From the NCBI RefSeq assembly GCF_001017655.1, contig NZ_CP010904.1, positions 1,800,001 to 1,832,000 on the forward strand: DNA of 32,000 nucleotides, in the 5' to 3' direction. The translations under genes were made by a program, and so were the position numbers. Positions 7,945 to 32,000 of this stretch are shown piece by piece; position 1 is the stretch's first letter, and each line of letters starts with the position of its first letter. The stretch comes from Kiritimatiella glycovorans. GTDB lineage: Bacteria > Verrucomicrobiota > Kiritimatiellia > Kiritimatiellales > Kiritimatiellaceae. The notes under the pieces were generated by a model. The model was not told where the DNA came from. It ran no database searches and saw only the letters and a list, made by a program, of their open reading frames with translations.

Positions 7945-7953
7945 AGCGTGGCG

Positions 7954-12230: not shown

Positions 12231-12244
12231 ACAACATGTGTGCG

Positions 12245-12460: not shown

Positions 12461-12462
12461 GG

Positions 12463-15583: not shown

Positions 15584-15787
15584 GACATACTCTCCGGGAT
15601 GGTAACGATCCTTGTTGAACTAGCGCCCATCATTCGATTGTGCTTTTGGTTCGTTATCGCCACCACAATCACGCACCGACTCATCGACTTCGGGCAGTTT
15701 GAACTGGAGCAGTCTCCCAACTCGGGCGCGACGCCGTTATGCGATGTTGGCACCGGGTCGTAGTTCATGTTTCGCCCTTTCTGCGTC

Positions 15788-18778
15788 TCATGCGGCGCTG
15801 TCGTCATAGGTCACACCGAAAATCGTGTCCGCCAGCCACTTCTTGAAGCCGGGGTTGTCGCTGAACTGCTTGAACAGCTCCGTGTGGTCGGACAGCATCC
15901 CGATCACCACCTTTTCCAAGGCTCGGTCGTGCTCCAGCCGCGCCGCCGATTTGCTGCTGTTCTTGATCGCGTTCAGGTATGCCTGGTCCTCTTTCACTTT
16001 GGCTGGGATGTCTTCGGTGATCACTTTGCGGATGCGGTCTGCGTCTTCCCACTCGATGTTGCCAAACCGGTCATTGAACGCTTTGATGATGTTGCTTAGC
16101 GCGTCCAATTCGGGTTCCGGCTTGCGTCCGCCGCCACTTGTCGGAACAGGGCCGATTTCGGCATCCGCATCCGGAAGCGTGAGCTGCATTGTCTGCTGCA
16201 CTTCGGCGCGGTAGCTGTCCATGTCGATGGCTTCCAGAATGCCTTTTGAAAGGTCCGGCTCAACAGGGGCTGGGAGCTTGGGAATCAGAAAATTCAGGAA
16301 GATAGACAATTTCTCCCACGCGGCGTTGGTGTATGGCAGAACCGAGGCCAGAAACTGATACGTCCGAGTGAACGTCTTGGCTTTGCCCTTGAAATCAACC
16401 TGGCCATCCTCATCAAGTTCGTCGTTGTAGACGCTCACGCATGCGTCCAGAATCGGGTCCAGCTTGTCCCGATCTTCGCCGTCGAGAAACAGCCGGACCA
16501 GTTGGTCGACCTGTTCATCGGCATACACCTGGTAACCATCCAAAGCCGCTTTGAGGTCGTGCAGCTTGTTCGGATCGGTTTCTTCGCTCAGCACCGTCGT
16601 GCGGTAGTAGTCGGAGAACGCGTCGGTGATCGTGTCCGCATCGTTCATGAAATCCAGCACGAAGGTGTCGGTCTTCTGCGGATGCGCGCGATTCAGTCGC
16701 GACAGTGTCTGCACCGCCTTGATGCCGGAAAGCACCTTGTCCACATACATTGTGTGTAGCAGCGGCTCGTCGTAGCCGGTCTGGAACTTGTCCGCAACGA
16801 TCAGAAATCGATACGGGTCTTTGCCGGGTATGCCCTTGATCTCGCCCGCTTTGATGTATTCCTCGATCTTGCCGCTCGGGAACCCGTTCATAGAGCCCTC
16901 GGTGATCTTCTTGCCATCCTGTTCGAAGTCGGAGAACGCTACGATTGCGTGGTACGGGCTCTTTCGCTCCTTGAGGTACGCCGTGACGGCGTCGTAGTAC
17001 TGGATCGCCCGCTTGATACTGCTGCAGATAATCATGGCCCGTGCCCGCCCGCCGATCTTCCGCCGAGCAATCACCTGTTCGTGAAAGTGGTCGACCATGA
17101 TCTCAGCCTTCGTCCGGATGGCGTGATCGTGCGACTCCACGTAGCGACGCAGCTTCTTCAGCGCCTTCTTTGTATCGAACTCCGGATCATCCTCGACTTC
17201 CTTGGCCAGACGACTCCAAGTGTCGACGGGGGTGTAATGCGCAAGAACATCCAGGATGAATCCTTCCTGGATCGCCTGCTTCATCGTGTAGCTATGGAAC
17301 GGCTGGTGCGGAATCTTCCCGTCCACCGGCTTGCCGGGGATGCCGAAGATCTCCAGCGTCTTGTTCTTGGGCGTGGCCGTGAATGCGAAGTAGCTGGCAT
17401 TCCCCAGCATCTTTCGCGATTCCATGATCTTGTTGACTTTGTCCTCGAAGGTCTCATCTTCTTCTTCGCCGCCCTTATCAGAAAGCGCCATGTGCATTTT
17501 CGCCGAAGTCTTCCCGCCCTGGCTGGAGTGAGCCTCGTCGATGATTATGGCAAACCGTTTCCCGCGATGCTCGTCTCCTATCTCGTCGAGGATGAACGGG
17601 AACGTCTGCACCGTGGAAATGATGATCTTCTTGCCCGCCTTCAGGAAGCTGCTGAGCTGTTGCGTCTTGCTGCCGGAGTCACCCGTTACCGCCCCGATCA
17701 CCGAGGATACTTGGGCAAACTGTTTGATCGTGTTGCGGATCTGCTTATCGAGCACGCGCCGGTCCGTGATGACCACGACGGAATCGAAAATGGCCTTGCC
17801 CCCATCCTCCAGGCCGATCAACTGATGGGCCAGCCAGGCGATGGAGTTGCTCTTGCCGCTGCCCGCCGAGTGCTGGATGAGGTACTTCTCACCCGCGCCC
17901 TTGGCGGCCGCGTCGGCCAGGAGCTTGCGGACCACGTCGAGCTGGTGATAGCGCGGGAATATCTGCTTGGGGTGTTTCTTGCGGCCGCGTTCGTCTTTCT
18001 CTTCGACGATCTCGGCGTAGTTTTCCAGCACATCTGTCAGGCCGGGCTTGGTGAGAATGCGCTTCCAGAGGTAGTCCGTCTTCAGCCCATTGGGATTGGG
18101 CGGGTTTCCGGCCCCATCATTCCAGCCCTGGTTGAAAGGCAGGAACCACGAGTCCTTGCCCTTCAGGTGCGTACACATCTGCACCTCGTGGTCGTCCACG
18201 GCAAAATGCACCACGCATCGACCGAACTTGAACAGTGGCTCGTTCGGGCTGCGATCCCGCTTGTACTGCCGCACGGCGTCATCGACCGTCTGCTTGGTCA
18301 GCGAATTCTTCAACTCGAACGTTGCTACCGGCAGACCGTTGATGAAGATGCCCATGTCCAGGGCGAGTTGAGTCTCGTCTTGGCTGTAGCGAAGCTGCCG
18401 CGTCACACTGAAGATATTGGCTGCGTGCAACTGGGCCGCCTTGGTGTTGCCCGGCGTGGGGGTCCCGTAGAACAGGTCCAAGCTCACCGGCCCATGCTTG
18501 ACGCCCTTGCGCAGCACATCGATGACGCCGCGCTTGGCTATCTCTGCGTCGAGGCGATGCAGGAACTGTGTCCGCTTTGGGCAATCCTGATCCAGCGCCA
18601 GGGTCTCGGCGGTCTCGGGCTGGGTGGCCTCCAGAAACTCGCGTAGCTTCGCCAGGTCGATTACATGCTCGCGGCCGTAGTCGGCATTGCTGCCCTGGAC
18701 GTAGCCCGCATCGTTGACGAGTGACTCGACGATCAGCGTTTCCAGCCCTTTTTCGCTAGTGTCGGTCCATGCAGTCAT
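15788..18778 (-). CDS. hsdR: Type I restriction endonuclease subunit R
   Basis: 996 aa from the ATG at 18778 (MTAWTDTSEKGLETLIVESL...). It has an N-terminal nuclease-type region (LDMGIFINGLPVATFELKN), SF2 helicase motifs (IQHSAGSGKSNSIAWLAH; FAIIIDEAHSSQ; FTATP; QTLSRLNR) and a C-terminal helical domain. The start overlaps the hsdM-S stop (ATGA). Confidence 0.9.
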   Translation of the reverse strand: MTAWTDTSEKGLETLIVESLVNDAGYVQGSNADYGREHVIDLAKLREFLEATQPETAETLALDQDCPKRTQFLHRLDAEIAKRGVIDVLRKGVKHGPVSLDLFYGTPTPGNTKAAQLHAANIFSVTRQLRYSQDETQLALDMGIFINGLPVATFELKNSLTKQTVDDAVRQYKRDRSPNEPLFKFGRCVVHFAVDDHEVQMCTHLKGKDSWFLPFNQGWNDGAGNPPNPNGLKTDYLWKRILTKPGLTDVLENYAEIVEEKDERGRKKHPKQIFPRYHQLDVVRKLLADAAAKGAGEKYLIQHSAGSGKSNSIAWLAHQLIGLEDGGKAIFDSVVVITDRRVLDKQIRNTIKQFAQVSSVIGAVTGDSGSKTQQLSSFLKAGKKIIISTVQTFPFILDEIGDEHRGKRFAIIIDEAHSSQGGKTSAKMHMALSDKGGEEEDETFEDKVNKIMESRKMLGNASYFAFTATPKNKTLEIFGIPGKPVDGKIPHQPFHSYTMKQAIQEGFILDVLAHYTPVDTWSRLAKEVEDDPEFDTKKALKKLRRYVESHDHAIRTKAEIMVDHFHEQVIARRKIGGRARAMIICSSIKRAIQYYDAVTAYLKERKSPYHAIVAFSDFEQDGKKITEGSMNGFPSGKIEEYIKAGEIKGIPGKDPYRFLIVADKFQTGYDEPLLHTMYVDKVLSGIKAVQTLSRLNRAHPQKTDTFVLDFMNDADTITDAFSDYYRTTVLSEETDPNKLHDLKAALDGYQVYADEQVDQLVRLFLDGEDRDKLDPILDACVSVYNDELDEDGQVDFKGKAKTFTRTYQFLASVLPYTNAAWEKLSIFLNFLIPKLPAPVEPDLSKGILEAIDMDSYRAEVQQTMQLTLPDADAEIGPVPTSGGGRKPEPELDALSNIIKAFNDRFGNIEWEDADRIRKVITEDIPAKVKEDQAYLNAIKNSSKSAARLEHDRALEKVVIGMLSDHTELFKQFSDNPGFKKWLADTIFGVTYDDSAA

Positions 18779-21700
18779 GACAAATTCACTCCATCCTCTG
18801 ACCGTTCCGCAACACATGGCAACTGGCCCGCTACAAGCTCATTCGCCGCGATAGCAGCCTCCTCTCGTATCGATTGGCTTAGCTGTTGATGCGTTTCTGC
18901 CAGCTGGATGAGGGATCTGATGCGATCGGCTATCTGAACCTGCTCCTCAATGGGGGGAATGGGTACCAGAATCTCTGAGAAGTCCTCGTATGTGATGTTC
19001 TTCCCTTGCCGAACTCCCGACACGGCGGTTGCAAGTTCGGCTATGAATCGCGGGGTCTTCATCAAGTATGTAAAAAACGCCTCATGAATACGGCGTTTCG
19101 GCCGCATGACAACGTAGGCTGGGCTCACGATGCCCCTACAAGCTGAGTACTCTATCCCCCCTTGGAATGAGCGGAGGCTTATAATGAAGTCCCCAGGCTG
19201 CACCAGCTTATAGCTGGATACATCGCCTCCGGGCATCACAACACTGATATCCAGCGCAGAGCGAGGCACGACCCCCTGCGACTGTGTGACCGACAATAGC
19301 TCTTCATCCGGATGGCCCTTGTCTACGACTTCCCGAAATACATGCTTGGCCTTCTCAATCTCCCAATGTGAAGGCACCCGCCCCATCCACCGCGTGCCGA
19401 TGTTGTCAATATCAGGCCCATTATCCTCCAGCGATATCGGGGTATCCTGGGTGATCGCCTGTCGCACACCCGGCAGCAGTTGCTCTCTGGTATGTGTTCT
19501 ATTATTTGCTTCAATCAGCAAGGCGTCAGTTTTAGCCGTTAGGCTATCGATGTCCTGAATGCGCGGGGGCTTAAAGAAGATCTTGTTGAATGGAATGCGA
19601 TATCCCAAGACACGTGGGACTGAGAGCCACGCATCCGATGCATGGGGTAGAATCTCGTTCTGATAGAATGCCGGTTCGCCGCCTTGGTACATCAGCGGGA
19701 TTCTCTCATGCTGCCTGAGTTCGGAATCCGGCTCGTACTCAACAACCATTGGGTTGCCGTCGCTCTCGATCTCATAGAGGCCGTAGAGCGGATCGATTTC
19801 GGCCTTGCCGGGCTTGTGGACCTTCTTGATGACCGGAGGTGCATCCTCAACCCGCCAACTCACGCTATTCAGGATGATCTTCTGCTCACCGGCGGACAGC
19901 TTGATGCCAAGATTCTTCAGCGCATCACTGACGGCATTGCGGAAGATGTTGTGATCGGTGAAGACATTCTCACCGAGTTCGTCCCGCAGGGCACGGGCGG
20001 CGTCATAGAGTTTTTTGTCCCGCTTCCAGGTGTCGGCCTTGAGCAGCTTCTTGCGTTTCTTCTCCGGGATGGCCGTTCGCTTGGGCGCATCGCTGTCTTC
20101 ATCTCCGTCGGAGTCCTCGTCCCCGTTGCCGCCCCAATCGCGGAGGGTCTGCTCGACCTGCTTGCGCACGGACGAGAAGTTCTCGAAGAGCGCATCGCCG
20201 TATTCTTCGTGCAGGGCCTGGCGGATGTCCTCGTCGCCTGAAGCGTATCGCAGGCCCTGGATTGCCTTGCGGGTCAACTGGCTGTGCAGACGAAGTGGGC
20301 GTTCGACGCGAATCTTCCAGTAGCCGAACGCGGCATTGGGGAAGATCTTCGACTGCTCGGTTTCCTCGAAGGCGAGGAATATCTCACAGATCTGCTTAAT
20401 CTGCTGGTCGGAAAACTCGCAGTTCTTCGCTCCCAGACTCTTGCGGAGGGGCTGGTGTATTTCTGTCGCGTCGATGAGTTGAATCCTACCCTTGCGGTGC
20501 ATCGGCTTCGTGTTCGTGAGCACCCAAATAAACGTCTCCATCTGGGTGTTGTAGAACATGTTGTTTGGCAGCGCGATGATCGCCTCCAGCCAGTCGTTCT
20601 CGATAATCCAGCGGCGGATGTTGGACTCGCCTTGGCCTGCGTCGCCGGTGAACAGGGACGATCCGTTGTGGACCTCTGCAATGCGGCTACCGAGGGGGCT
20701 GCGGTCAGTGGGCTCGACCATTTTCGTTAGCTTATTAACGAGGAACAGGAGCTGGCCATCGCTTGAACGGGTGATGAGGGATAGCTCGTCGCCGTCGTGC
20801 TGGACTACAAAACGGTGATCGGACATGTCCTTCTTGCCGCCCATGCGGTCGAGGTCGGTCTTCCAGCTCTTGCCGTACGGCGGATTGGAGAGCATGAAGT
20901 CGAACTCGCCGGAGGGGAAGGCGTCGCGGGAGAGCGTCGAGCCGAACTTCATGTTCTCCGCGCCCTGGCCTTCGCCCTTGAGCAGCAGGTCGGCCTTGCT
21001 GATGGCGTAGGTTTCGGGGTTGACCTCCTGGCCGAACAGGTGGATGGAGACGTCCTTGCCGCGACTGTTGGCGAGGTCGCGGAGGGTATCCTCGGCGACA
21101 GTCAGCATGCCGCCGGTGCCGCACGCGCCGTCATAGACGCGATACGTGGCGGATTGGATGTCATCGGCGATGGGCCAGAAGATCAGGTTGGCCATTAGCT
21201 TGACGACGTCGCGGGGTGTGAAGTGCTCGCCCGCCTCCTCGTTGTTCTCCTCGTTGAAGCGGCGGATCAGCTCCTCGAAGATCGTGCCCATGGCGTGGTT
21301 GTCCAGGCCGGGCAGGCGGACGGTGCCCTCGGCGTCGCGGACCGGGTGCGGGCTGAGGTTGATGTCGGGGTTAAGGAATTTCTCGATGAGCGGACCAAGC
21401 GCATCCGCGTCAACCAGCGTGGGAATCTGGTTGCGGAACTTGAATTTGTCGAGTATCTCCTGAACGTTCGGGCTGAAGCCATCGAGGTAGGCTTCAAAGT
21501 CGGCCTTGAGCTGTTGCTGCTTGGCGCGGGCCTGGAGGTCGCGAAGCGTGAACGGCGAGTCGTTATAGAAGGCGTGGTTGGCGTCGGGACCGGCGGCTTT
21601 CGACAAAGCGCCGACCTTGTTGGCGACGCCCGCCTTGTCGAGCTGTTCGCTCATCTTCAGGACGTCCTGCTTAGTGGACTCCAGGCAGGCGTCAAGACGG

Positions 21701-21822
21701 CGGATGACCGTCATGGGCAGGATCACGTCGCGATACTTACCGCGCACGTAGACGTCGCGGAGCACGTCATCCGCAATGCCCCAGATGAAATTAGCAATCC
21801 AATTCAGTTGCCCGTTTTCCAT
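18775..21822 (-). CDS. hsdM: Type I RM N6-adenine DNA methyltransferase (HsdM) fused to a single-TRD half specificity subunit (HsdS)
   Basis: 1015 aa from the ATG at 21822 (AAGGAG upstream). HsdM_N-like MENGQLNWIANFIWGIADDVLR. SAM motif VYDGACGTGGML and catalytic FDFMLSNPPYG. An acidic linker GNGDEDSDGDEDSD follows. The last ~230 aa look like one target-recognition domain (PSHWEIEKAKHVF...GDFIISLRSFQGG...) plus one conserved HsdS helix (LVPIPPIEEQVQIADRIRSLIQ). No separate hsdS gene is present. Confidence 0.85.
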   Translation of the reverse strand: MENGQLNWIANFIWGIADDVLRDVYVRGKYRDVILPMTVIRRLDACLESTKQDVLKMSEQLDKAGVANKVGALSKAAGPDANHAFYNDSPFTLRDLQARAKQQQLKADFEAYLDGFSPNVQEILDKFKFRNQIPTLVDADALGPLIEKFLNPDINLSPHPVRDAEGTVRLPGLDNHAMGTIFEELIRRFNEENNEEAGEHFTPRDVVKLMANLIFWPIADDIQSATYRVYDGACGTGGMLTVAEDTLRDLANSRGKDVSIHLFGQEVNPETYAISKADLLLKGEGQGAENMKFGSTLSRDAFPSGEFDFMLSNPPYGKSWKTDLDRMGGKKDMSDHRFVVQHDGDELSLITRSSDGQLLFLVNKLTKMVEPTDRSPLGSRIAEVHNGSSLFTGDAGQGESNIRRWIIENDWLEAIIALPNNMFYNTQMETFIWVLTNTKPMHRKGRIQLIDATEIHQPLRKSLGAKNCEFSDQQIKQICEIFLAFEETEQSKIFPNAAFGYWKIRVERPLRLHSQLTRKAIQGLRYASGDEDIRQALHEEYGDALFENFSSVRKQVEQTLRDWGGNGDEDSDGDEDSDAPKRTAIPEKKRKKLLKADTWKRDKKLYDAARALRDELGENVFTDHNIFRNAVSDALKNLGIKLSAGEQKIILNSVSWRVEDAPPVIKKVHKPGKAEIDPLYGLYEIESDGNPMVVEYEPDSELRQHERIPLMYQGGEPAFYQNEILPHASDAWLSVPRVLGYRIPFNKIFFKPPRIQDIDSLTAKTDALLIEANNRTHTREQLLPGVRQAITQDTPISLEDNGPDIDNIGTRWMGRVPSHWEIEKAKHVFREVVDKGHPDEELLSVTQSQGVVPRSALDISVVMPGGDVSSYKLVQPGDFIISLRSFQGGIEYSACRGIVSPAYVVMRPKRRIHEAFFTYLMKTPRFIAELATAVSGVRQGKNITYEDFSEILVPIPPIEEQVQIADRIRSLIQLAETHQQLSQSIREEAAIAANELVAGQLPCVAERSEDGVNLS

Positions 21823-21830
21823 GGCCTTTT

Positions 21831-22061
21831 TTACTCCTTGCGCATCTTGTCGGCATTCCCGGGTTCGGCGTCTCCGCCTGAACTCTCCCCGCCCCCTCGC
21901 CGGACCCACTCATCCACCTCCGACAGCTTGAAACGAAGCAGCCTGCCGACACGCTGCGCGGGCAGGCCCTCTTTTTCGACCCATCTATATATTGAGGGTT
22001 TCTGAACGCCCAGATGGGCGGCCACCTGATCTGCGTCGACCCACGCTTCCTGATTTGTCAT
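21831..22061 (-). CDS. Excisionase/AlpA/MerR-type helix-turn-helix DNA-binding protein (HTH_17-like)
   Basis: 76 aa. WVDADQVAAHLGVQKPSIYRWVEKEGLPAQRVGRLLRFKLSEVDEWV is the typical excisionase-family HTH. AGGAG lies upstream of the ATG at 22061. The stop is 8 nt before the hsdM-S start. Confidence 0.7.
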   Translation of the reverse strand: MTNQEAWVDADQVAAHLGVQKPSIYRWVEKEGLPAQRVGRLLRFKLSEVDEWVRRGGGESSGGDAEPGNADKMRKE

Positions 22062-22166
22062 CTCATTTACTCCTGTCCGGCACCATTTCCGATGAAGAGA
22101 CAGAACAACAATATATCAAACAGCACTGGGACTTCAAGGAAATTCCCCCAAATGACAAGAAATGGT

Positions 22167-22212
22167 TTGACAGCACTGCCGTTTAGTGTAAACTAAACAG
22201 TCTTTGGCAGTG
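22167..22212 (+). promoter_or_regulatory. Candidate sigma-70 promoter of the XRE cassette (TTGACA-16 nt-TAAACT) embedded in a nested palindrome (likely operator)
   Basis: TTGACA at 22167-22172 and TAAACT at 22189-22194. The inner inverted repeat is GTTTAGT-GTAA-ACTAAAC at 22181-22198. The outer arms are CACTGCC (22174-22180) and GGCAGTG (22206-22212). All read directly. Confidence 0.4.
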
Positions 22213-22249
22213 GAGTCGCTGACCAGGCACAGACTAATTGGAGTATGAG

Positions 22250-22612
22250 ATGACCGACAATTTGGCATTCGGAAAACGGATAAGGGAGCTGCGGGAGGAG
22301 AAGCTCAAGACGGACCCGAAATTTACGCTCCGGAAATTCGCGGAGGCGGTCGGGATAAGCCCCACGTTTTTGAGCAAGGCCGAGCGCGGCGAATTCAAAC
22401 CGCCCAAGGCGGAGAACATCATGAAGATGGCCCAGTTGCTGGACGTGGACCCGGACGAACTGCTGTCGCTGGCGAACAAGGTCGATCCGGAACTCGAGAA
22501 GATCATCAAAGAACGGCCGAAGGCCTTGCCCGATCTGCTCCGCACCGTGCGGGGCATGTCGGAAGAGGAGCTTCGCAAGCTCACGGACCGGGCACGCAAA
22601 CAAAAGGACTGA
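22250..22612 (+). CDS. XRE family helix-turn-helix transcriptional regulator
   Basis: MTDNLAFGKRIRELREEKLKTDPKFTLRKFAEAVGISPTFLSKAERGEFKPPKAENIMKMAQLLDVDPDELL is a typical HTH_3 domain. The ATG at 22250 has GGAG 6 nt upstream. The track ORF begins at an in-frame TTG at 22238. Confidence 0.85.
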   Translation: MTDNLAFGKRIRELREEKLKTDPKFTLRKFAEAVGISPTFLSKAERGEFKPPKAENIMKMAQLLDVDPDELLSLANKVDPELEKIIKERPKALPDLLRTVRGMSEEELRKLTDRARKQKD

Positions 22613-22626
22613 CACGCGGGGCGACC

Positions 22627-23328
22627 ATGGCCAAGGTGAAATACCTCCGACATAGCGAGATCGAGAACGCCGCCCTGTGCCTGCTGGCCGAGTACGGCCG
22701 CAAGTACGGGGACGTGGTCGAGCCGCCCGTGCCGGTCGAGGAGATTCTTGAGGCCCATCTCGCGCTGACGCTCGACTTCGACGACCTGGGCAAGCGTATC
22801 GGCGTGCCCGATGTGCTGGGGGCGACGTGGATTCAGGACAAGCTCGTGCTCGTCGATCAGTCGCTGGACCCGGAAGAAAACCCGACCAAGGAAGGCCGGT
22901 ATCGGTTCACGCTCGCGCATGAGCTGGGGCACTGGGAACTTCACCGCCATCACTTTCTGGCCAACGCAGGTCAGTCGTCGCTGTTCGGCGACAAGCCCGA
23001 GCCGTCCATCGTCTGCCGCACGAGTTCGCGGAAAGAACCGATGGAGTGGCAGGCCGACATGTTCTCCGGCTACCTGCTCATGCCCAAGGACATGATCTTC
23101 GCGGCGTGGGAATCGCGGTGCGGCAGCTTGGACCCGTACATCGCCAAGGATGAGATGGCCGACCTGTCGGCCAAATGGGGACTGGCGGAAGACGAGCAGC
23201 CCACGGTGGATATCGCAAAGGACCTGGCCCGGCAATTCAACGTGTCGGGGCAGGCGATGCAGATACGGTTGATCGGACTGGGCCTTATCAGGACCGAGGT
23301 GCCCGCGCCCGATCTGTTCACAGGATGA
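22627..23328 (+). CDS. ImmA/IrrE family (DUF955) zinc metallopeptidase
   Basis: 233 aa with HEXXH in RFTLAHELGHWELHRHH and the downstream conserved EWQADMFSGYLLMP. It lies directly downstream of an XRE regulator, the canonical ImmR/ImmA-type pairing. Confidence 0.85.
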   Translation: MAKVKYLRHSEIENAALCLLAEYGRKYGDVVEPPVPVEEILEAHLALTLDFDDLGKRIGVPDVLGATWIQDKLVLVDQSLDPEENPTKEGRYRFTLAHELGHWELHRHHFLANAGQSSLFGDKPEPSIVCRTSSRKEPMEWQADMFSGYLLMPKDMIFAAWESRCGSLDPYIAKDEMADLSAKWGLAEDEQPTVDIAKDLARQFNVSGQAMQIRLIGLGLIRTEVPAPDLFTG

Positions 23329-23408
23329 CTCGGTCCATATTCTTTTTTGAGGCAAGCGTTTAGTGTTTAGGCGACGCGCTACGCTGGCCTGGAAAGGAGT
23401 CCGAATCG

Positions 23409-24584
23409 ATGGCTCAGCAGTTTAACCCGAAGCGTGTGTTGCGGCAGATCTCCAATCCCCTGCTGAAGGATTTCTTCGAGCAGCAAGGCCATCCGCTTGA
23501 TGTGGAATGGGATCAGCTGAGCAACACCCAGATGGACGACGTTTTCGATGCGTGGCAGCGTCTGCCCGACGCTGACCGCAAGGCTATCGAGATCGCCTTC
23601 CATGACGTCCACGAGATGGCGAACGAGGACGGCACGCGCGTCATCATCGAGGAAGGCCAGTACCACGGCGAGGACCTTTCGCCCCTGCTCGAACCGATGG
23701 AGAGCCGGTACGACAAGGCGCTCTGGACCTTCATGAATCGCCCGGCGGTCTGGGACGCGGGGGTTCGATTCGCCAAGGCTGACACGCTCTGGGGCGGTCG
23801 GTCGTGGGTGAAGCGCGGCAACATGCCCTGCGCCGATCCGAAGTCGGACGGGGAAGCCCTACGTGAGTTCCAGGAGGCCATGTCCGCGTTCTACCGTGAC
23901 CGTCAGGGACGGGGCCATCACTGCAAGGTCGAGCATTTCCCGCGAGGCGGCGACCTGCACTACTACTTCGTTTATCTGAGCGACTACGCCGACACCTACA
24001 TCAACTTCGACGACGCCGGTCATTTTCAGCGGACGCCGGAGCGGCGTGCGTTCGAGATCGTTTTCGCCTACGACAAGGACACCTGCACGTTGGAGATGTA
24101 CGCCAAGGGCGGCAAAAAGGTCGTCGAGCCGCTGCAGCGTATCTTCTCGCGGATCATCCTGGACGAGCCGCTTCCCGCCGAGGAACCGGGCGTCCACCCC
24201 TACCAGCTCGATGGCCTGATGGACCGCAACTTCACGTTCCAGACCGATCCCGAAGATGGAATCGAACAGGTAACGCTGCGTGCGATGCGGCTGTCAATCC
24301 TGGGCCGCAAGCGCGGACGCATCACGTTGGAACCCGACCCGGAAGATGGGCGGGATCGAATCTATGAAATGCTGGAGGACGACCTGAATCGCCGCCGCTT
24401 GCCCAAGTCCATCCTGCACGTCACCAAGGCGACGATCAATTTCAAGCTGAACGGCAACGGGCACGGTCGGTCGCTGACCTTCGACGTGACGTACCCGAAC
24501 GGCTGCTCTTTGAAGAGTAAGCGCGAAGACCAGAGGCTGCTGGGCGAGAAGTATCTCAAGAGGTGGGAAATCGATGTGGCATGA
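23409..24584 (+). CDS. Hypothetical protein, 391 aa, no domain recognised
   Basis: The ATG at 23409 has AAAGGAG 8 nt upstream. Amino-acid composition is balanced and there is no internal low-complexity sequence. The stop overlaps the next ORF's start by 11 nt. Confidence 0.7.
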   Translation: MAQQFNPKRVLRQISNPLLKDFFEQQGHPLDVEWDQLSNTQMDDVFDAWQRLPDADRKAIEIAFHDVHEMANEDGTRVIIEEGQYHGEDLSPLLEPMESRYDKALWTFMNRPAVWDAGVRFAKADTLWGGRSWVKRGNMPCADPKSDGEALREFQEAMSAFYRDRQGRGHHCKVEHFPRGGDLHYYFVYLSDYADTYINFDDAGHFQRTPERRAFEIVFAYDKDTCTLEMYAKGGKKVVEPLQRIFSRIILDEPLPAEEPGVHPYQLDGLMDRNFTFQTDPEDGIEQVTLRAMRLSILGRKRGRITLEPDPEDGRDRIYEMLEDDLNRRRLPKSILHVTKATINFKLNGNGHGRSLTFDVTYPNGCSLKSKREDQRLLGEKYLKRWEIDVA

Positions 24585-25506
24585 CCCCTTGGACATCATC
24601 TGGCGAGCGGCTGACAACCCGCGCTCGGTCTTTGCCGCTGAGGACCTGGACGGTATGCCGCCGCAGATCAGAACGCGGTTGACGCAACTGGAAATCCTGC
24701 GCCCGTCCTCGACGGCGACGCACGTAGTCTGCGATGCGTGCTTCGACCATCATGTCGAGAAGGTCACGCCGATCCAGTATCCCGACAAGACAACGCGGTT
24801 CTTCATTCACTGCCCGGAGAACGGGCGGGTTGAGGTTCCGCGCGAGCGTCTCTTTCAGTGGACTGTCCATTTTGGGCCGATCCTGACCGGTCTGGCGACC
24901 GCGCTGTCGGCAAAGGGTTCGCCAGCCGAGATCGTGCCGGGGCGCGTCTGGAATCTTGGACGTGCGGCCTTGGCGGGCAAGTCCAAACCGGTATGGGTAG
25001 CGCGAGGGCTGGCCTGGCCTGATGCCGGACAGCTTGCTCAGTCGATACCTAAGGGCCGGTCACCGGTCCTCTTCTATCTTGGCCAGGCGGCAGACGATGG
25101 CCTGCTGGGAATTCCCCGTGAGTCGATCATCGAACTGCGAACGGTTGTTCATCTCGACGGCAGTATCGTTGTAGACCGTGATGCGATTGAGGTCCAATTG
25201 GTGGACGTTGAAGCACCGCCGAGCAAAAGGCAACAGAAGAAGCAGAGTCCTCGCGACGCCACGGTCGGCGCATTGAAGCGAGAATTGCACGAGCGGATTC
25301 TGTCGATGAAAAGCGCGATCCGCAGCGCCGACGACACGGGCTCGCTGTTCGATCTGCCTCGCGTGACCCAGAAGCAACTGGCTGCCGCGATCAAGGTAAG
25401 CGAATCGTCGGTGACGCGGGCAATCAACGAAAGCGGAGATCGCGAGTTGGAAATCATGCTCCAGACTATCGAGAGTGAAAACCTGATCCGGAAGTACTCC
25501 CGCTGA
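24574..25506 (+). CDS. Hypothetical protein, 310 aa, with a possible Cys/His zinc-binding N-terminal part and a C-terminal HTH
   Basis: CDACFDHH...HCPENG gives a C-x2-C...H-C pattern. The C-terminal LPRVTQKQLAAAIKVSESSVTRAINE looks like a helix-turn-helix. It overlaps the upstream ORF by 11 nt. Confidence 0.65.
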   Translation: MWHDPLDIIWRAADNPRSVFAAEDLDGMPPQIRTRLTQLEILRPSSTATHVVCDACFDHHVEKVTPIQYPDKTTRFFIHCPENGRVEVPRERLFQWTVHFGPILTGLATALSAKGSPAEIVPGRVWNLGRAALAGKSKPVWVARGLAWPDAGQLAQSIPKGRSPVLFYLGQAADDGLLGIPRESIIELRTVVHLDGSIVVDRDAIEVQLVDVEAPPSKRQQKKQSPRDATVGALKRELHERILSMKSAIRSADDTGSLFDLPRVTQKQLAAAIKVSESSVTRAINESGDRELEIMLQTIESENLIRKYSR

Positions 25507-25516
25507 ACGTGCGGAA

Positions 25517-25549
25517 TTGCAGTTGCCACCGTTTGCTGCAACTGCAATC
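25517..25549 (+). other. Perfect 11-bp stem hairpin (ATTGCAGTTGC / GCAACTGCAAT, 11-nt loop) just after the 310-aa ORF
   Basis: Read directly. No U-tract follows, so it is either a factor-dependent or weak terminator, or a protein-binding palindrome. Confidence 0.3.
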
Positions 25550-25696
25550 CAGAAATCTCTCGCCGTAACCGACGTGATGGCAGCCTGTTACGAGCACCGA
25601 AACATTTCAGGCCATCGTTTCCTGCAATTTCTCCCCAGGGTGTCGAGCAACGCAACGGGCGCTGCTCACGAGTGACACCCGTGTTGGAGAAGTGCT

Positions 25697-26035
25697 ATGC
25701 AGGAACCTCGATCCATTCCCACCAAGTCTTGTCTGTCTGACTCGCAGGTCCGGCTCATTGAGCTGATGCAGCGGATCAACTTCGGCCGCATCTTTGATCT
25801 GCCGGTGCGCAACGGCCAGCCGGTCATGGACCCACCGCCGCGCGTCGTCCGCGAGATCAAGTTCGGCAGCGACAACGGGCCTCGCCCCGAAGTCGCCAAG
25901 GCTGACTTCACTCTCAAGGCCCAGGTCCGCGACCTGTTCGCCCAGTTGGAGGCGCTGGGCGACGGCGTGATCCCGTGCATCGAGATTCAGCGCGGTCTGC
26001 CGTTCCGGATGACCGTCGAGGAGGTGTGCGCCTGA
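25697..26035 (+). CDS. Hypothetical protein, 112 aa, no domain recognised
   Basis: The ATG at 25697 has GGAG 8 nt upstream. The ORF ends 7 nt before the IS3 left end. Confidence 0.55.
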   Translation: MQEPRSIPTKSCLSDSQVRLIELMQRINFGRIFDLPVRNGQPVMDPPPRVVREIKFGSDNGPRPEVAKADFTLKAQVRDLFAQLEALGDGVIPCIEIQRGLPFRMTVEEVCA

Positions 26036-26043
26036 GCAATGGG

Positions 26044-26071
26044 GAGCGGTGGTCCCGATAGCGGAGCCAGT
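26044..26071. repeat. IS3-family left terminal inverted repeat
   Basis: GAGCGGTGGTCCCG-ATAG-CGGAGCCAGT. Its partner is at 27439-27467. Confidence 0.7.
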
Positions 26072-26219
26072 TTTTTCGAACTTTAAGTCAGCATCAGGGC
26101 TCCCGCTTCCTGCGAGTGTTCTGCCACAACTCCGGCGAGTTGTCCATAGCCTGCGGCCGTCGAGAATGGGTCATTGAACTCGTCGGAGACGGTCGCATGG
26201 CTGTGGGCAACTCGCCTCT

Positions 26220-27116
26220 TCATGCCGCTCTCCATTTCGACTCCGCCTCGATTCCGAAGTACGCCTCATCGGGCGTTCGATCCCCGATCGATGAATGCGG
26301 ACGTTCGGTATTGTAGCGCTCCAGCCACGCCCCCACGCCGCGCCCGGTTTCCCGGGGCGTTTCATAGCTTTTCAGATAAACATCCTCATACTTCAGGCTC
26401 CACCACAGCCGCTCGATGAACACATTGTCCACCCAGCGGCCCGTCCCATCCATGCTGATTTTTAAGCCCTCGTGCTGTTTCATCTCCCTGATCCAATCCG
26501 TCGACGTGAACTGCGAGCCCTGATCGGTATTCATGATCTCCGGCGCCCGTCCGGCCGTGGCCACCGCCGATCGAAAGGCCCGCAGGCAGAACGCGGTATC
26601 CATCGTGGTGCTCAGTTCCCACCCGAGCACTTTCCGGCTGTACCAGTCCATGACGGCCACCAGGTAGCAATACCCTCGCGGCATCGGGATATAGGTGATA
26701 TCGGCGCACCAGACCTGATTCGGCCGCGTAACATCCACTCCACGCAGCAAATACGGATAGATGCGATGCCCCTTGCCCGGTGCGCTGGTCCGCGGCCGCG
26801 GGCGGAGAGCCGAGATATGCGCGAGCCTCATCAGCCGGCGAAGCCGCTTTCGCCCCACGTTCAGCCCCTGTTCGCGCTTGAGTAATCGGCGCAGCCCCCG
26901 CGTCCCGAACGTCGGGAAACGCAGATGAAGTTCGTCGAGCATCCTCATAATCCGTAAGTCCGTGATCGTCGCCCTGGGCTCCGGCGGCGTCAACCGGTTC
27001 CGGTTGACGCCCAGCAGAGCACATTGGCGCCGCAGCGAGCGTTGAGCATCAGAAGGATCCACCAGAGCCTTCCTCACGGATCGATCCCCAACTCGACGCA
27101 TTTTTTTTCCATCCAC
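26220..27116 (-). CDS. IS3-family transposase OrfB (DDE/rve integrase core), expressed as an OrfAB fusion by a -1 frameshift
   Basis: The sequence ...WCADITYIPMPRGYCYLVAVMDWYSRKVLGWELS...MNTDQGSQFTS...ISMDGTGRWVDNVFIERLWWSLKYE...YNTERPHSSIG contains the D, D, E catalytic-core context typical of rve. Confidence 0.85.
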   Translation of the reverse strand: MDGKKMRRVGDRSVRKALVDPSDAQRSLRRQCALLGVNRNRLTPPEPRATITDLRIMRMLDELHLRFPTFGTRGLRRLLKREQGLNVGRKRLRRLMRLAHISALRPRPRTSAPGKGHRIYPYLLRGVDVTRPNQVWCADITYIPMPRGYCYLVAVMDWYSRKVLGWELSTTMDTAFCLRAFRSAVATAGRAPEIMNTDQGSQFTSTDWIREMKQHEGLKISMDGTGRWVDNVFIERLWWSLKYEDVYLKSYETPRETGRGVGAWLERYNTERPHSSIGDRTPDEAYFGIEAESKWRAA

Positions 27117-27379
27117 TCCTTCTCAATCACCAGCTGACCTACTTTTCGCTCCAGCCGCTCGCAGTTCTTTTCCAGCCCGCGCTTTTCTAGGTCCGGCGCG
27201 TTCTTGCGCTCAAAGAGATCGGCTGCGCCCTCTGTGAGCTCCGTCTTCCATCGAGTCACCATGGTCGGATGCACGTTGTTTTCCGCCGCGATCTCCGCCA
27301 CGGTCTTGATGCCGCGCAACGCTTCCATCGCGATACGCGCCTTGAACTGCGCGCTGTGATTTCGTCTCGGCTTCTTCAT
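27074..27379 (-). CDS. IS3-family transposase OrfA (HTH_Tnp_1)
   Basis: MKKPRRNHSAQFKARIAMEALRGIKTVAEIAAENNVHPTMVTRWKTEL... is followed by a leucine-zipper-like tail. AAAGGAG lies upstream of the ATG at 27379. Confidence 0.85.
   Translation of the reverse strand: MKKPRRNHSAQFKARIAMEALRGIKTVAEIAAENNVHPTMVTRWKTELTEGAADLFERKNAPDLEKRGLEKNCERLERKVGQLVIEKEWMEKKCVELGIDP
27101..27108 (-). promoter_or_regulatory. Programmed -1 ribosomal frameshift site (A8 run) joining orfA and orfB
   Basis: The minus strand reads GGAAAAAAAATGCG. In the orfA frame this is GAA AAA AAA TGC. A -1 slip then reads ATG CGT CGA, which is the orfB frame (..KKMRRVGD..). Confidence 0.7.
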
Positions 27380-27438
27380 CGGTTCTCCTTTCGGTCTCCT
27401 TTTTACCGGGAGAACCCGATGCGGTCTATCCGCCCCTC

Positions 27439-27467
27439 ACTGGCTCCGTTTTCCGGGACCACCGCTC
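27439..27467. repeat. IS3-family right terminal inverted repeat
   Basis: The reverse complement reads GAGCGGTGGTCCCG-GAAAA-CGGAGCCAGT. It is identical to the left repeat in 24 positions (a 14-nt block and a 10-nt block) with a 1-nt indel in the spacer. Confidence 0.7.
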
Positions 27468-27873
27468 AATGGATGCGGTCCCAGGACCAGGCATAACCGA
27501 TGCAGGCGTTTCCAGCTTCACCGCCGGAGTAAAGCATCCACCATCGGCCGTCTGCCAAACGCTCCGCATGGCAGGAGGAGACGTAGCCGTTCGCGCCTTC
27601 CCAATCCTGAGCGTCGATCAGGCCGGAGAGGATCGGCGCGTTTCCATACAGTCGCCAGTCCAACCCGTCGTCCGAGTAACCCAGACCGAGACTGTCGTTG
27701 CCGCCGGTCGAGGCGATGAAGATCATGGCGTAGCGCCAGGTGAAAGGTTTGCGTAGGAACTCCTTGTGGTAGGATCGCGTCTCCTCGCCGAACACATCGA
27801 GATACTTCTCTCGAAGCTCGCCGACCGTCATCCGGGCGAGCCCCTGGATTTCTTGATATGTGGTTGTTTCCAT
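27466..27873 (-). pseudogene. Chimeric ORF: a DUF2924-like N-terminus joined to a beta-propeller glycosidase-like fragment, with the stop codon supplied by the IS3 end
   Basis: The ATG at 27873 has AAGGAGG 6 nt upstream. METTTYQEIQGLARMTVGELREKYLDVFGEETRSYHKEFLRK resembles DUF2924, a family usually found just upstream of large serine recombinases. The remainder (STGGNDSLGLGYSDDGLDWRLYGNAPIL...DGRWWMLYSGG) resembles a glycoside-hydrolase propeller blade. The TGA at 27466-27468 spans the IS/flank boundary. Confidence 0.5.
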
Positions 27874-27939
27874 CCGAAACCTCCTTGGTTCACGTTTCAC
27901 CCGTCGCGTGCGGTCCTCCCGCACCGCAATCTCGGGGCG

Positions 27940-29512: not shown

Positions 29513-31462
29513 TCAGCCCTTCGACCGGGAGAGGTGGCAGAGCGGCTTAATGCGCTGGATTGCTAATCCGGTATACGCCGTAAAGGCGTATCGGGGGTTC
29601 GAATCCCCCCCTCTCCGCCAATTTGGAATCCGGCGATTTTCGGCGACGACGGACCACGGGGCCGGGAACCGGACATGCAAGACGGGATCGGTCTTCGAGC
29701 CGAGCGACCGGAAGAGCGTGACGGACTGACCGCCCGCCGCCTGACTGCCTCCTGACAGTGACGCCACGTCCGCCGGAAGGATCGGGATGAACTCCGACAC
29801 GTCGCCGGACGCCGCCGCCGCGACCGTGACGCCGACCGCCGAGGGCTGCGAAATCGCCTTGTTTTCTTCGATTCTTGGACTCTCCAGCCGCTTCCCAGTG
29901 TCGGGACAATTCGGCGAGCGTGCGGCAGAGCCGCCGCGAAGCCCTGCGATGGGATTCCCGCCGTCGCCGAGGCTATGGCGGGCAAGCCGGGACGGGGCAT
30001 CCGTCAGACTCGGACTCTGACACGCGCTCCGGCTTCCGTCGGTCTCGGTCTCCTGACCGTCCGCCGACCCGGACACGCCGCCGCCGGACAGAATCGCCGC
30101 CGCCAGAAGCAGGTTTGAACCGGTCTTTTTGTGCCAGTTCCGCAGATCCTCAAGGTCGTCCGTCTCGGCGTCGTACTTCGCTTGACGGGAAGCGGTTATG
30201 AAGTCGGCCAGAGGTTTGAACCGATTGGCCCCGTGACCCTCAAGCCGGGCCACCGAATCGGCAAGCGTCGCCTTTTCCTGAACGAGTCTTTCCTTGTGAC
30301 TCGTGAAGTCCTCCTTTGTGATGGTGCCGTCGATGAACACGTCAAGGAGGCGGTTCAAGCGGTCGGTCGCGCGGGAGAGGTCCGCCCTGTGCCGCGCCAG
30401 CAATTCGGCTTGCCTCGCGGTGTCGGCGAGTTTCCACGCTTCAACCTCGGCAAGCATCGCATCGGCCCAGTCATCGCGAATCGAGGCAAGCCGGATGCTG
30501 GCGCGTAGGTACTGCGTCAAGGCTTCTTCCCGGATCGTCTTCAACTCGCAAGGTCCGCGCCGCTTGCCGCATCGGTAGTAGGAGTGGCCCTTCTGCTCGT
30601 CGGCGGTGATGGCGCATCCGCAATGGTGACACTGGATCAAGCCCCGGAACGGGTAGCGGGCGCGCCGCGTGTAGCGTCCGCGTCCCCGGTTCTTGCGAAC
30701 CTTCTGCACGCGGTCAAACACCTCCCGCGAGACAAGCGGCGGGTGTTTGCCTTCGTACACCTCGCCGCTAAACCGGAAGACGCCGACATAGAACGGATTG
30801 GCGAGAATCGCGTGTACGCGACTCATCGAGAGCGGCTTGCCCCTGACGCCCACAAGCCCCCAGTCCTGAATCATGGCGGCGATCTCCGTAACCGTGTACT
30901 GCCCGGTTGCGTAGGTCTCAAACATCCGACGGAGAAGCGGCGCTCGCTCTTCGTCGAAAACGATCATGCGCGTTCGCCGGTCGTTCACGTAGCCGGGCGG
31001 CGGCATGTTCGGATAGATGCCTTCCCGGAGCTTCTTCCGTATGCCGCGCTTGATGTTCTCCGAAAGGTTGTCCACGTAGTATTTGCTCTGCCCGAATGCC
31101 ACTTGCAGGATAAACTTGCCTTGCGGGGTGTTCTCAAACCAGAACGTCGGGAACTTCAAGGCGGCCAGTTTACCGGTGTCCAAGTCGTAGATGATTCGTC
31201 CTCCGTCAATGGAATTCCGGGCCAGCCGGTCGGGGTGCCAAGCAAGGATTGCCTGGGCGTCGCCGTCTTCAATCGCCTGCATCATCTCGTTGAAGACCGG
31301 GCGTCCCGGTTTCTTGGCCGTCTGCGCTTCGAGGTACTCGTGCGCCACGTCGAGCCGATCCTTGCTTGCCAGCATGCGGAGTTCGTCGAGTTGTGCGTCA
31401 ATCGAAAGCACTTGCCGGCTGTCGTCCTCGGTGGACTTCCGGGCGTAGATGAAGAACTTCAC
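29513..31462 (-). CDS. Large serine recombinase (resolvase domain + recombinase domain + zinc ribbon + coiled coil). The true C-terminus is uncertain because the frame stays open to 29513.
   Basis: GTG start at 31462 with GGAGG upstream. VKFFIYARKSTEDDSRQVLSIDAQ is the catalytic Ser motif. Other features are AWHPDRLARN, recombinase-domain YPNMPPPGYV...FETYATGQYTVTEIA, zinc ribbon CHHCGCAITADEQKGHSYYRCGK and a coiled coil. The last ~195 codons are Gly/Ala/Ser/Pro-rich and run antisense through tRNA-Ser. Confidence 0.8.
   Translation of the reverse strand: MKFFIYARKSTEDDSRQVLSIDAQLDELRMLASKDRLDVAHEYLEAQTAKKPGRPVFNEMMQAIEDGDAQAILAWHPDRLARNSIDGGRIIYDLDTGKLAALKFPTFWFENTPQGKFILQVAFGQSKYYVDNLSENIKRGIRKKLREGIYPNMPPPGYVNDRRTRMIVFDEERAPLLRRMFETYATGQYTVTEIAAMIQDWGLVGVRGKPLSMSRVHAILANPFYVGVFRFSGEVYEGKHPPLVSREVFDRVQKVRKNRGRGRYTRRARYPFRGLIQCHHCGCAITADEQKGHSYYRCGKRRGPCELKTIREEALTQYLRASIRLASIRDDWADAMLAEVEAWKLADTARQAELLARHRADLSRATDRLNRLLDVFIDGTITKEDFTSHKERLVQEKATLADSVARLEGHGANRFKPLADFITASRQAKYDAETDDLEDLRNWHKKTGSNLLLAAAILSGGGVSGSADGQETETDGSRSACQSPSLTDAPSRLARHSLGDGGNPIAGLRGGSAARSPNCPDTGKRLESPRIEENKAISQPSAVGVTVAAAASGDVSEFIPILPADVASLSGGSQAAGGQSVTLFRSLGSKTDPVLHVRFPAPWSVVAENRRIPNWRRGGDSNPRYAFTAYTGLAIQRIKPLCHLSRSKG
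29528..29620 (+). tRNA. tRNA-Ser (anticodon GCU), long variable arm, CCA encoded
   Basis: Hand-folded cloverleaf of 93 nt: acceptor GGAGAGG/CCTCTCC, anticodon arm CTGGA-TTGCTAA-TCCGG, variable-arm stem ACGCC/GGCGT, T arm GGGGG-TTCGAAT-CCCCC, discriminator G, CCA. Confidence 0.9.
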
Positions 31463-31692
31463 GGCTTCGCCTCCTTCCGTTTGGCCTTCGCCTCTTCCGC
31501 TACCTTCGTAGCCTCTTTGGCCATCTTCCGAAACGCCGATACGTCCGGGGTTGGAATCGGTTTGAGCAGGATGTGTTCGCCGTCGGTGAACAGCGCCAGT
31601 TTGCTGCCTGCCCGTAGGCCAAGCATCTTCCGCACGTTCTCCGGGATGACGAATTGCCCCTTCGATGAAAGCCTCGCTATCTGATAGTGCAT
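31459..31692 (-). CDS. AbrB/MazE/SpoVT-family DNA-binding small protein, translationally coupled to the serine recombinase
   Basis: MHYQIARLSSKGQFVIPENVRKMLGLRAGSKLALFTDGEHILLKP is a typical SpoVT-AbrB swapped-hairpin domain, followed by a Lys/Ala/Glu tail. Its TGA overlaps the recombinase GTG (GTGA). The longer track ORF (to 31815) is rejected. Confidence 0.6.
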   Translation of the reverse strand: MHYQIARLSSKGQFVIPENVRKMLGLRAGSKLALFTDGEHILLKPIPTPDVSAFRKMAKEATKVAEEAKAKRKEAKP

Positions 31693-32000
31693 ATGCCTCC
31701 CGACGTCGTAAGCGTCTCTTACGCGATAGGGAGACAATAGACCGGCGGGCGAAGTGATGCAACAGGTTTCTGCGTTCTTTGCAGGGGGACCCTCCCGGCG
31801 TGATGCAGGCGGCAAACGGAGCGCCTCGCAGCGGGCGTGACACCGCGTCTGCGCGGTGGCGCGACCGATGCGCGCGGAGTGGGTGGCGGTGACGGGGCGC
31901 GGCGGTTGGTTGCTGCTTTGCGAGTGTAACCAACAAGACCAGAGCAGCCGGCATCCTATGGGAGAAGCATAGCGTGAAGCGGATCGGAAATGCCGGGCTG

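Follow-up and report, generated by a model that had tools for sequence, protein, structure and literature searches.

The peptidases CapP, IrrE and ImmA are related, and each cleaves a helix-turn-helix (HTH) repressor (Lau et al. 10.1101/2022.04.27.489752; Calloji et al. PMC13228613). The trigger for CapP and IrrE is single-stranded DNA resulting from DNA damage (10.1101/2022.04.27.489752; PMC13228613), and one third of CapP proteins have a cysteine switch loop (10.1101/2022.04.27.489752). Here, we analyzed a cassette headed by a repressor/peptidase gene pair of this kind in a 32-kb stretch of the Kiritimatiella glycovorans genome (contig NZ_CP010904.1, positions 1,800,001–1,832,000), hereafter referred to as the window, the coordinates of which are used for all positions given below. 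The cassette (22167–26035, plus strand) encodes an XRE-family HTH repressor, an ImmA/IrrE-type M78 zinc metallopeptidase and three further proteins of 391, 310 and 112 amino acids (aa), referred to as A, B and C. It is probably a remnant of a degraded temperate phage, of which it preserves the front end, with the switch and the first genes under its control. The corresponding phage family appears, on balance, to be large and to infect Planctomycetota (Phycisphaerae, Planctomycetaceae and Pirellulaceae), Lentisphaerota and some other phyla.

The gene for the XRE-family repressor (22250–22612, plus strand; 120 aa from its ATG) is separated by 14 nt from that for the peptidase (22627–23328, plus strand; 233 aa), and the genes for A (23409–24584), B (24574–25506) and C (25697–26035) follow on the same strand, C being the last gene retained in the window. 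A longer mechanical open reading frame (ORF) for the repressor starts at a TTG (22238–22612). The true start is likely to be the ATG at 22250; a GGAG lies 6 nt before this codon, and the alignments of relatives begin at residue 5 of the longer ORF. Shine–Dalgarno-like motifs were found 5′ of all five starts, and the 11-nt overlap of the A and B genes (24574–24584) suggests translational coupling. The plus-strand array of five ORFs described in the original prediction, with its Shine–Dalgarno sequences and A/B overlap, is thus present in every detail. All five ORFs align with relatives over their full length, without frameshift or stop.

Protein A belongs to a very large set of relatives. The indexed protein collection yielded 174 homologues, all about 390 aa long and none with a Pfam domain, and an exhaustive profile search at E ≤0.001 retrieved the representatives of 2,590 clusters formed at 50% identity. 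Scans with the A alignment identified 280 loci in species-representative genomes and 237 viral contigs in IMG/VR; no relative was found by tblastn among the cultured phages of INPHARED. The genome loci were mostly from Phycisphaerae, Planctomycetaceae and Pirellulaceae, including the cultured Novipirellula and Aporhodopirellula, and the other hosts included Lentisphaerota/Victivallales, Desulfatitalea, Fibrobacteraceae and Acidimicrobiia, among others. For the analysis of gene content, all the ORFs of 164 fetched loci were clustered. A relative of B followed A in 146 of these loci, and ImmA, XRE and a protein of about 200 aa resembling sigma-70 region 2 were found in 115, 103 and 104, respectively. 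In the 134 loci with enough upstream sequence, the XRE and ImmA genes shared the strand of A in 83 cases, lay on the opposite one in about 21 and were undetected in 27.

In relatives with A proteins 81% and 72% identical to that of the window, the genes were found in the order XRE, ImmA, a small gene, A, B, C, the sigma-like gene of about 200 aa, and a DUF3799 or YqaJ nuclease gene, and the array continued on the same strand with AAA_24 (Sak4-type), DUF669, RusA, DEAD helicase, PrimPol/DUF3987 and VRR_NUC genes. The domain matches of cluster representatives agreed with these gene identities. Replication or recombination genes were located downstream in 99 of the 112 loci with at least 8 kb of sequence downstream of A, and genes for a large serine recombinase and a DUF2924 protein were found near the cassette in 41–43 loci. 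A shorter array, in locus L071, consisted of A, B, C, the sigma-like gene, a primase, an HNH endonuclease, a ParB/methyltransferase and a small terminase subunit (phrog_83, E 7e-49). Since this array reaches a terminase gene, the family includes true temperate phages, which is consistent with the IMG/VR contigs and the PHROG match. Integrase, immunity switch, replication and packaging genes, by which a temperate tailed phage can be recognized, thus occur in the relatives; the window copy does not have this full set.

The pairwise identities of A were strongly correlated with those of B (Spearman rho 0.87), and also with those of the helicase (0.77), ImmA (0.76) and the sigma-like protein (0.74), whereas their correlation with those of the mosaic recombination genes was poor (0.18–0.33). 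The A–B pair was tied to one element family in 88% of informative loci, and its position remained constant down to 27% identity. This co-divergence with backbone genes indicates that A–B is a vertically inherited part of the phage backbone rather than swappable cargo. The regulatory region is followed first by A and B, whichever strand carries the switch pair, and we therefore consider them to be the immediate targets of the switch.

The window is homologous at the nucleotide level to its nearest relatives (about 80% identity, a metagenome-assembled genome from Phycisphaerae) from about position 22250 to 26036–26044, and the homology thus ends no more than 9 bases past the stop codon of C. An IS3-family insertion sequence (26044–27467, minus strand), with HTH_Tnp_1 and rve/rve_3 ORFs and 28-nt terminal inverted repeats (26044–26071 and 27439–27467), is located at this truncation point. 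Beyond it, there are only a DUF2924 fragment, two unannotated ORFs and a serine recombinase gene. None of the sigma-like, nuclease, Sak4, DUF669, RusA, helicase and PrimPol genes of the array was found anywhere in the 32-kb window, and neither were packaging or structural genes. Everything after C has therefore been lost next to the IS3 element, and the remnant cannot replicate. Leftover functions of a decayed integrative element had been one of two possibilities put forward in the original prediction, and this is the one favored by the comparison, with the array cut after C beside the IS3 element and the relatives carrying the long phage array. The sequence AATGG flanks the IS3 element on both sides (26038–26043 and 27468–27472), imperfectly, with one extra G on the left. 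If this is a target duplication, the IS3 element would have entered a junction that was already truncated rather than having itself caused the deletion.

The DUF2924 fragment (27733–27879, minus strand) corresponds to an N-terminal part of 49 aa, 63% identical over these 49 aa to its counterpart in locus L003 and matching profile positions 2–42 of DUF2924 (E 3.5e-6). In the relatives, the DUF2924 gene partners the serine recombinase gene adjoining the XRE gene. The chimeric ORF to which the fragment belongs in the window (27466–27924, minus strand) begins with about 60 residues of the DUF2924 N-terminus, and the remainder is unrelated and ends exactly at the IS3 boundary, providing further evidence of rearrangement. 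The large serine recombinase of the window (29513–31954, minus strand; 813 aa; Resolvase, Recombinase and Zn_ribbon_recom domains) is only 23–25% identical to the recombinases of the relatives, so its link to the element of the cassette is uncertain; it is possible that it is the integrase of the decayed element or that of a neighboring one. This degree of decay raises the question of whether the cassette has any function at all in this genome. It is conceivable, if on the unlikely side, that it has none and is a recently stranded fragment that has yet to gather disabling mutations. The truncation and rearrangement of the element (the IS3 at the break, the DUF2924 chimera and a recombinase fragment at 6033–6416) and the disappearance of the replication and structural genes would be consistent with such a fate, but the five ORFs can still be aligned in full with relatives and both the promoter and the operator are intact. 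Lack of function would also concern the present role of the cassette only, and is compatible with any ancestral function.

The region upstream of the XRE gene contains the cis elements of the predicted switch. A sigma-70-type promoter, TTGACA(22167)-16 nt-TAAACT(22194), is located on the plus strand at 22167–22194 and matches the consensus at 10 of 12 positions. A consensus scan of 4.7 kb identified two promoter-like sites versus 1.1 expected, which, taken alone, is at chance level. The −10 element is overlapped by the palindromic operator GTTTAGTGTAAACTAAAC (22181–22198), an exact match to GTTTAG-N6-CTAAAC and the only one in the window. The same arrangement, with TTGACA, the spacer and a −10 element within GTTTAG-N6-CTAAAC, recurs upstream of the XRE genes of relatives, with proteins 40–80% identical. 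When up to one mismatch was allowed, a search for the palindrome in 2.55 Mb of related loci gave 23 matches, every one of them at the XRE promoter, 1250–2250 nt upstream of the start of A. As it is confined to one conserved position in the relatives, the palindrome is a real regulatory site, and it is presumably bound by the XRE repressor. There is therefore strong sequence-level evidence for a repressor-controlled, self-regulated XRE promoter, and the promoter with a nested palindrome noticed in the original prediction is backed by its conservation upstream of the XRE genes of relatives. The operator half-site also occurs as a tandem copy, GTTTAGTGTTTAG (23357–23369), read directly from the sequence 40 nt upstream of the start of A. 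A scan of the related loci revealed no full operator at this position, and the half-sites might serve the XRE protein as a second place of binding or be a mere relic.

The XRE protein matched HTH_19 (E 3.6e-11) and HTH_3 (E 1.1e-10), and the peptidase matched Peptidase_M78 (E 7.4e-12), with an H98-E-L-G-H102 (HELGH) motif, in agreement with the XRE HTH and HEXXH peptidase initially assigned to these two genes. The best matches in the defence libraries were PADLOC capH for the XRE protein (E 1.3e-8) and capP for the peptidase (E 7.7e-22). Residues H98, E99, H102 and E140 of the peptidase are invariant across 116 homologues, and C130, between H102 and E140, is kept in 86% of them, identifying a cysteine loop at the sequence level only. 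The nearest solved relative among PDB sequences was CapP (7t5t_A, E 2.4e-5), and only residues 86–155 could be aligned with it. The peptidase has 233 aa and CapP 291 aa, a difference of about 58 residues, and its length is too small to accommodate a complete GAF domain; since it is shorter than CapP and only the peptidase core aligns, the C-terminal GAF domain is probably absent, and the architecture would therefore be closer to that of ImmA. The locus thus has an XRE/Cro-C1-type HTH gene next to an M78 HExxH gene, the hallmark of ImmR/ImmA-type switches. In the relatives, this pair heads the activation genes of a mobile element, of which the window has a truncated head only. A cysteine lies between the HExxH motif and the third zinc ligand, as in the CapP subset with a switch loop, to which the peptidase would be predicted to correspond in this respect. 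We found no relevant literature on prophage switches in Planctomycetota.

Protein A had no significant match in Pfam, NCBIfam, PADLOC or PDB sequences in profile searches, and the best match in PHROGs was phrog_37634 (E 2.7e-36), which is annotated as of unknown function. The AlphaFold model (predicted local distance difference test, pLDDT, 82) begins with a helical domain of about 125 residues, and its C-terminal part is an alpha/beta region. The top PDB fold match was RdgC (2owl_A; probability 0.97, E 3.6e-3, TM score 0.29–0.35), followed by CENP-N (0.94) and the N-terminal domains of RnlA (0.8–0.9), and neither the A nor the B model had a PDB fold match at E ≤0.001. In BFVD, A matched three uncharacterized phage proteins with a fold match probability of 0.99. 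Membership of the RdgC family (PF04381) was considered and rejected, as there was no Pfam match at E ≤1 and the hhalign comparison with Escherichia coli RdgC gave a probability of 0.1. The conserved residues of A are mostly arginines and aromatic residues, a pattern compatible with nucleic-acid binding. Thus, A may be described as a conserved phage protein with a weakly RdgC/RnlA-like predicted fold, which provides a structural lead rather than a family membership.

Protein B had no significant match in Pfam, NCBIfam or PDB sequences and no significant fold match; in PADLOC, it gave a weak HTH match to mad1 only (E 0.0076). Its AlphaFold model (pLDDT 87.7) has an N-terminal zinc-ribbon domain, a middle alpha/beta domain, a disordered linker, a long helix and a C-terminal HTH. 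The ligands of the zinc ribbon, C53-x2-C56, H60 and C80, are conserved among homologues. The CxxC...HC motif noted in the original prediction therefore stands for its cysteines, C53, C56 and C80, to which H60 can be added, but not for H79, the histidine of "HC", which is not conserved. The C-terminal HTH predicted at the same time was recovered both in the confident model, as helices 266–298, and in weak profile matches over residues 252–305, with a weak likeness to HipB-type and sigma region 4 HTHs.

Directly 3′ of the stop codon of B, there is an inverted repeat, TTGCAGTT-N15-AACTGCAA (25517–25547). Its arms are invariant in eight relatives, the B proteins of which are only 45–70% identical, and it was found in 16 loci, in all cases 2000–2500 nt after the start of A, and at no other position in the roughly 2.5 Mb scanned. 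The RNA form has a folding energy of −21 kcal/mol (z −2.5) and lacks a U-tract. The combination of invariant arms with a variable loop suggests that the sequence is recognized by a protein, and that it is not a mere RNA hairpin. This palindrome may be a control point between the A–B unit and the unit formed by C, the sigma-like gene and the replication genes, acting as an attenuator or as a protein-binding site, and B itself might be a candidate for the protein binding it. The intergenic region between B and C (25560–25640) contains two further conserved motifs, CGTAAC...GTTACG and TTTCCTGCAA, the latter repeating the hexamer CTGCAA of the palindrome arms.

Protein C had no significant match in Pfam, NCBIfam or PADLOC, nor, in a single-sequence search, among PDB sequences. 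It has 677 homologues, more than A or B, without a Pfam domain. No catalytic domain had been recognized initially in A, B or C, and the absence of any Pfam, NCBIfam or PADLOC match to such a domain in the three proteins is in line with this. In all nine loci for which the gene calls were examined, C is directly followed by the gene of about 200 aa, with a Sigma70_r2 match in three of them; the representative of the corresponding cluster matched Sigma70_r2 with an E value of 1e-05, and it is on the basis of these matches that the gene is called sigma-like. C was present in only 35 of the 164 fetched loci. In locus L104, C (2399–2725) is 81% identical to the window copy and A only 37%, implying that C has been exchanged between otherwise distant elements.

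We also identified sibling elements with the same core of C, sigma-like and replication genes, without XRE, ImmA, A and B, and with unrelated genes in the slot upstream of C. In four of these siblings (L169, L172, L173 and L174), the slot is occupied by pairs of 602 and 736 aa, 804 and 735 aa, or 264 and 706 aa, or by a reverse transcriptase. The 706-aa protein has a weak QueC match, a slot with a 356-aa protein is preceded by an opposite-strand reverse transcriptase gene, and HsdR is found further upstream. The 602/736-aa pair of L169 displayed no distant homology to A or B. These pairs may be alternative modules, as unannotated as A–B. Thus, C is a module that is exchanged independently and goes with the sigma-like gene, and not the third member of a trio. 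Absence of the trio as a conserved unit outside this genome had been named in the original prediction as a refuting outcome; the cassette is in fact widespread, but the conserved unit is the A–B pair, and C is a separate module that also occurs without it.

The comparison with siblings is also relevant to another possible function of A–B, as an accessory factor for a phage DNA transaction at the start of induction rather than a transcription regulator. The main candidate would be a recombination directionality factor for the large serine integrase and the alternative a replication-origin or recombination accessory protein. We consider this improbable. The genes for the serine recombinase and the DUF2924 protein adjoin the cassette in the 41–43 loci mentioned above, remnants of both are found in the window, and no Xis-type gene was recognized in these elements. 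To our knowledge, the directionality factors of serine integrases (phiC31 gp3 and Bxb1 gp47) are early phage proteins with no common fold. RdgC is a recombination-associated DNA-binding protein, and the hint of an RdgC-like fold in A is in keeping with a role of this kind, as is the first place after the switch, which would suit a function needed at once on induction. However, A and B together amount to 700 aa, far above the size of the known directionality factors, and the siblings have the same replication core without A–B.

The genes surrounding the cassette suggest yet another function. A dense defence island is located upstream of it, on the minus strand (6009–21909), with the host gene glnE (1026–4757) at its edge. 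It comprises a resolvase (recombinase) fragment (6009–6431), an AbiEii-domain protein (6428–7837), an AAA_15 ATPase with a metallophosphatase (8419–12230), HerA and SIR2 (12463–15583), HsdR of a type I restriction-modification (RM) system (15788–18817) and HsdM with an HsdS-like C-terminal end (18775–21909). The divergent RM and SIR2 block of the original prediction thus corresponds to the minus-strand type I RM and SIR2–HerA genes. A gene for a 76-aa HTH_17 protein (excisionase/AlpA-like; 21831–22061, minus strand) heads the type I RM operon, divergently from the XRE gene. A minus-strand promoter-like site, TTGAAG-16 nt-TATATT (22110–22137), lies 45 nt from the XRE operator, and the XRE switch might therefore also affect the RM operon.

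Defence genes are also found upstream of the XRE gene in the relatives: HsdR in 11 loci, HsdM in 17, and DUF1156, DUF499, SNF2/PLD/NOV_C helicases, DruA and HerA. They were seen within 10 kb of the XRE gene in L161–L163, L031, L041, L046, L063, L068, L073, L101 and L116, and they differ from locus to locus, suggesting that defence cargo is repeatedly acquired between integrase and switch in this phage family. In relatives, a DUF2188 gene of 78 aa is found between ImmA and A (L161, 9623–9859), and it is not present in the window; its product matches the PADLOC phage defence candidate PDC-S16 (E 3e-33). For A, B and C themselves, no model of known or candidate defence systems in PADLOC-DB 2.0 gave a match, apart from the weak mad1 match of B.

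It could thus be argued that A–B is a prophage-borne defence or superinfection-exclusion pair, raised on DNA damage by a CapH/CapP-like switch, in a position comparable to that of the lambda cI-rexA-rexB genes or of the CapH/CapP immune operons, and kept because it is useful in a defence island. The regulators match capH and capP, CapP is the nearest solved relative of the peptidase and the cysteine loop is conserved. Defence genes recur upstream, with type I RM, SIR2–HerA and AbiEii in the window; the sibling slot holds a reverse transcriptase, a protein with a weak QueC match and HsdR; the DUF2188 gene matching PDC-S16 (3e-33) lies between ImmA and A; the fold matches of A include the RnlA toxin; and the window retains all five ORFs intact, having lost the remainder of the phage. 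Nevertheless, A, B and C have neither a PADLOC match nor a recognizable effector domain, such as a nuclease, NADase, pore-forming or ATPase domain. A–B is bound to one element family (88%) and co-diverges with the backbone, which is not typical of mobile defence cargo, and standalone cassettes of the kind seen here are uncommon, at about 4 of 112 loci. We therefore regard a role in defence as unlikely. Similarly, the proposal in the original prediction that the three genes form a new defence or abortive-infection effector set found no positive evidence and appears doubtful.

If the cassette is, as we propose, the front end of a temperate phage, its operation can be outlined as follows. The XRE protein would bind GTTTAG-N6-CTAAAC over the −10 element of a strong promoter and thereby keep expression of its own operon low, as the conservation of the site suggests. 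By analogy with ImmR/ImmA, DdrO/IrrE and CapH/CapP, the ImmA-type zinc peptidase, with its CapP-like cysteine loop, would cleave the repressor after a DNA-damage signal. A and B, a backbone pair with likely translational coupling, would be the first genes released. Given the zinc ribbon and HTH of B and the weakly RdgC-like fold of A, with its conserved arginines and aromatic residues, they may then act as early DNA-binding proteins passing the induction signal on to the unit formed by C, the sigma-like gene and the recombination/replication genes, and B may relay this signal by acting at the invariant palindrome 3′ of its own gene; this is the weakest step of the scheme.

Several observations weigh against this interpretation. 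The siblings have the same core without A–B, which is therefore not indispensable to such phages, and the A–B slot, which holds other genes in these siblings, lies beside a stretch with many defence genes. For the cutting of the repressor by ImmA and the sensing of damage, the scheme relies on analogy with the related systems. Profile and fold searches yielded no function for A, B or C, and the resemblance of A to RdgC is limited to the fold level, with the low TM scores and the profile comparison probability reported above. Loci L123–L125 keep the palindrome yet differ in the predicted recognition helix of B, and the idea of a general terminator hairpin after B across the family was dropped, as folding energies compared with coding-region controls provided no support for it. 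Finally, a single locus, L071, was followed as far as a packaging gene. The assignment of A, B and C to ordinary mobile-element functions had been named in the original prediction as an outcome that would refute it, and no profile or structure search assigned any of the three to replication, partition or conjugation.

The A–B pair may also be something new in its own right, an undescribed two-protein module with no recognizable enzymatic domain, placed directly under a damage-sensing repressor/protease, and constituting either a new prophage-borne defence or exclusion system, retained in this defence island on that account, or a new class of early factors linking the switch to the sigma cascade; we hold this only with considerable reservation. 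What is new here is the pair itself, whereas the induction switch is of an already known kind, the ImmR/ImmA type (CapH/CapP-like). A–B is a very large unannotated pair family beneath a switch predicted to respond to damage, in phages of Planctomycetota and their kin, which are almost unstudied. The cis elements GTTTAG-N6-CTAAAC and TTGCAGTT...AACTGCAA, together with the cultured hosts with intact copies (Novipirellula rosea JCM 17759, N. herctigrandis CA13, Aporhodopirellula rubra CECT 8075 and A. aestuarii; loci L024, L025, L030, L031 and L033), make its function testable. What looks in this window like a standalone cassette of regulators and uncharacterized genes beside defence genes is probably a stranded piece of prophage, and this calls for caution in the mining of defence islands.

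The locus can be compared with four groups of described systems. As in ImmR/ImmA of the Bacillus subtilis element ICEBs1 and the phi105 repressor/ImmA pair, adjoining genes for an XRE repressor and an M78 HExxH protein head the activation genes of the element, and a palindromic operator overlies the promoter (background in 10.1101/2022.04.27.489752 and PMC13228613). Unlike these systems, the switch pair is mostly co-directional with the phage genes it controls (83 versus about 21 loci), the integrase gene is outside the operon, and the 233-aa peptidase has a conserved cysteine loop of the CapP type. The locus shares with CapH/CapP and with DdrO/IrrE of Deinococcus the HExxH...E ligands, the intervening cysteine and the proximity of defence genes. 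However, only the peptidase region aligns, the window protein probably lacking the GAF domain that CapP and IrrE carry, and, in contrast to CapH/CapP, the genes directly downstream belong to a phage backbone and not to a recognized immune operon. Protein A differs from RdgC, CENP-L/N and the N-terminal folds of RnlA in having an additional N-terminal helical domain of about 125 residues. The intact relatives resemble temperate siphoviruses with Sfi21/A118-type replication modules in their Sak4/AAA_24, DUF669, helicase, primase-polymerase and VRR-NUC/RusA genes, whereas the window copy has lost this entire module and retains the switch, A–B and C.

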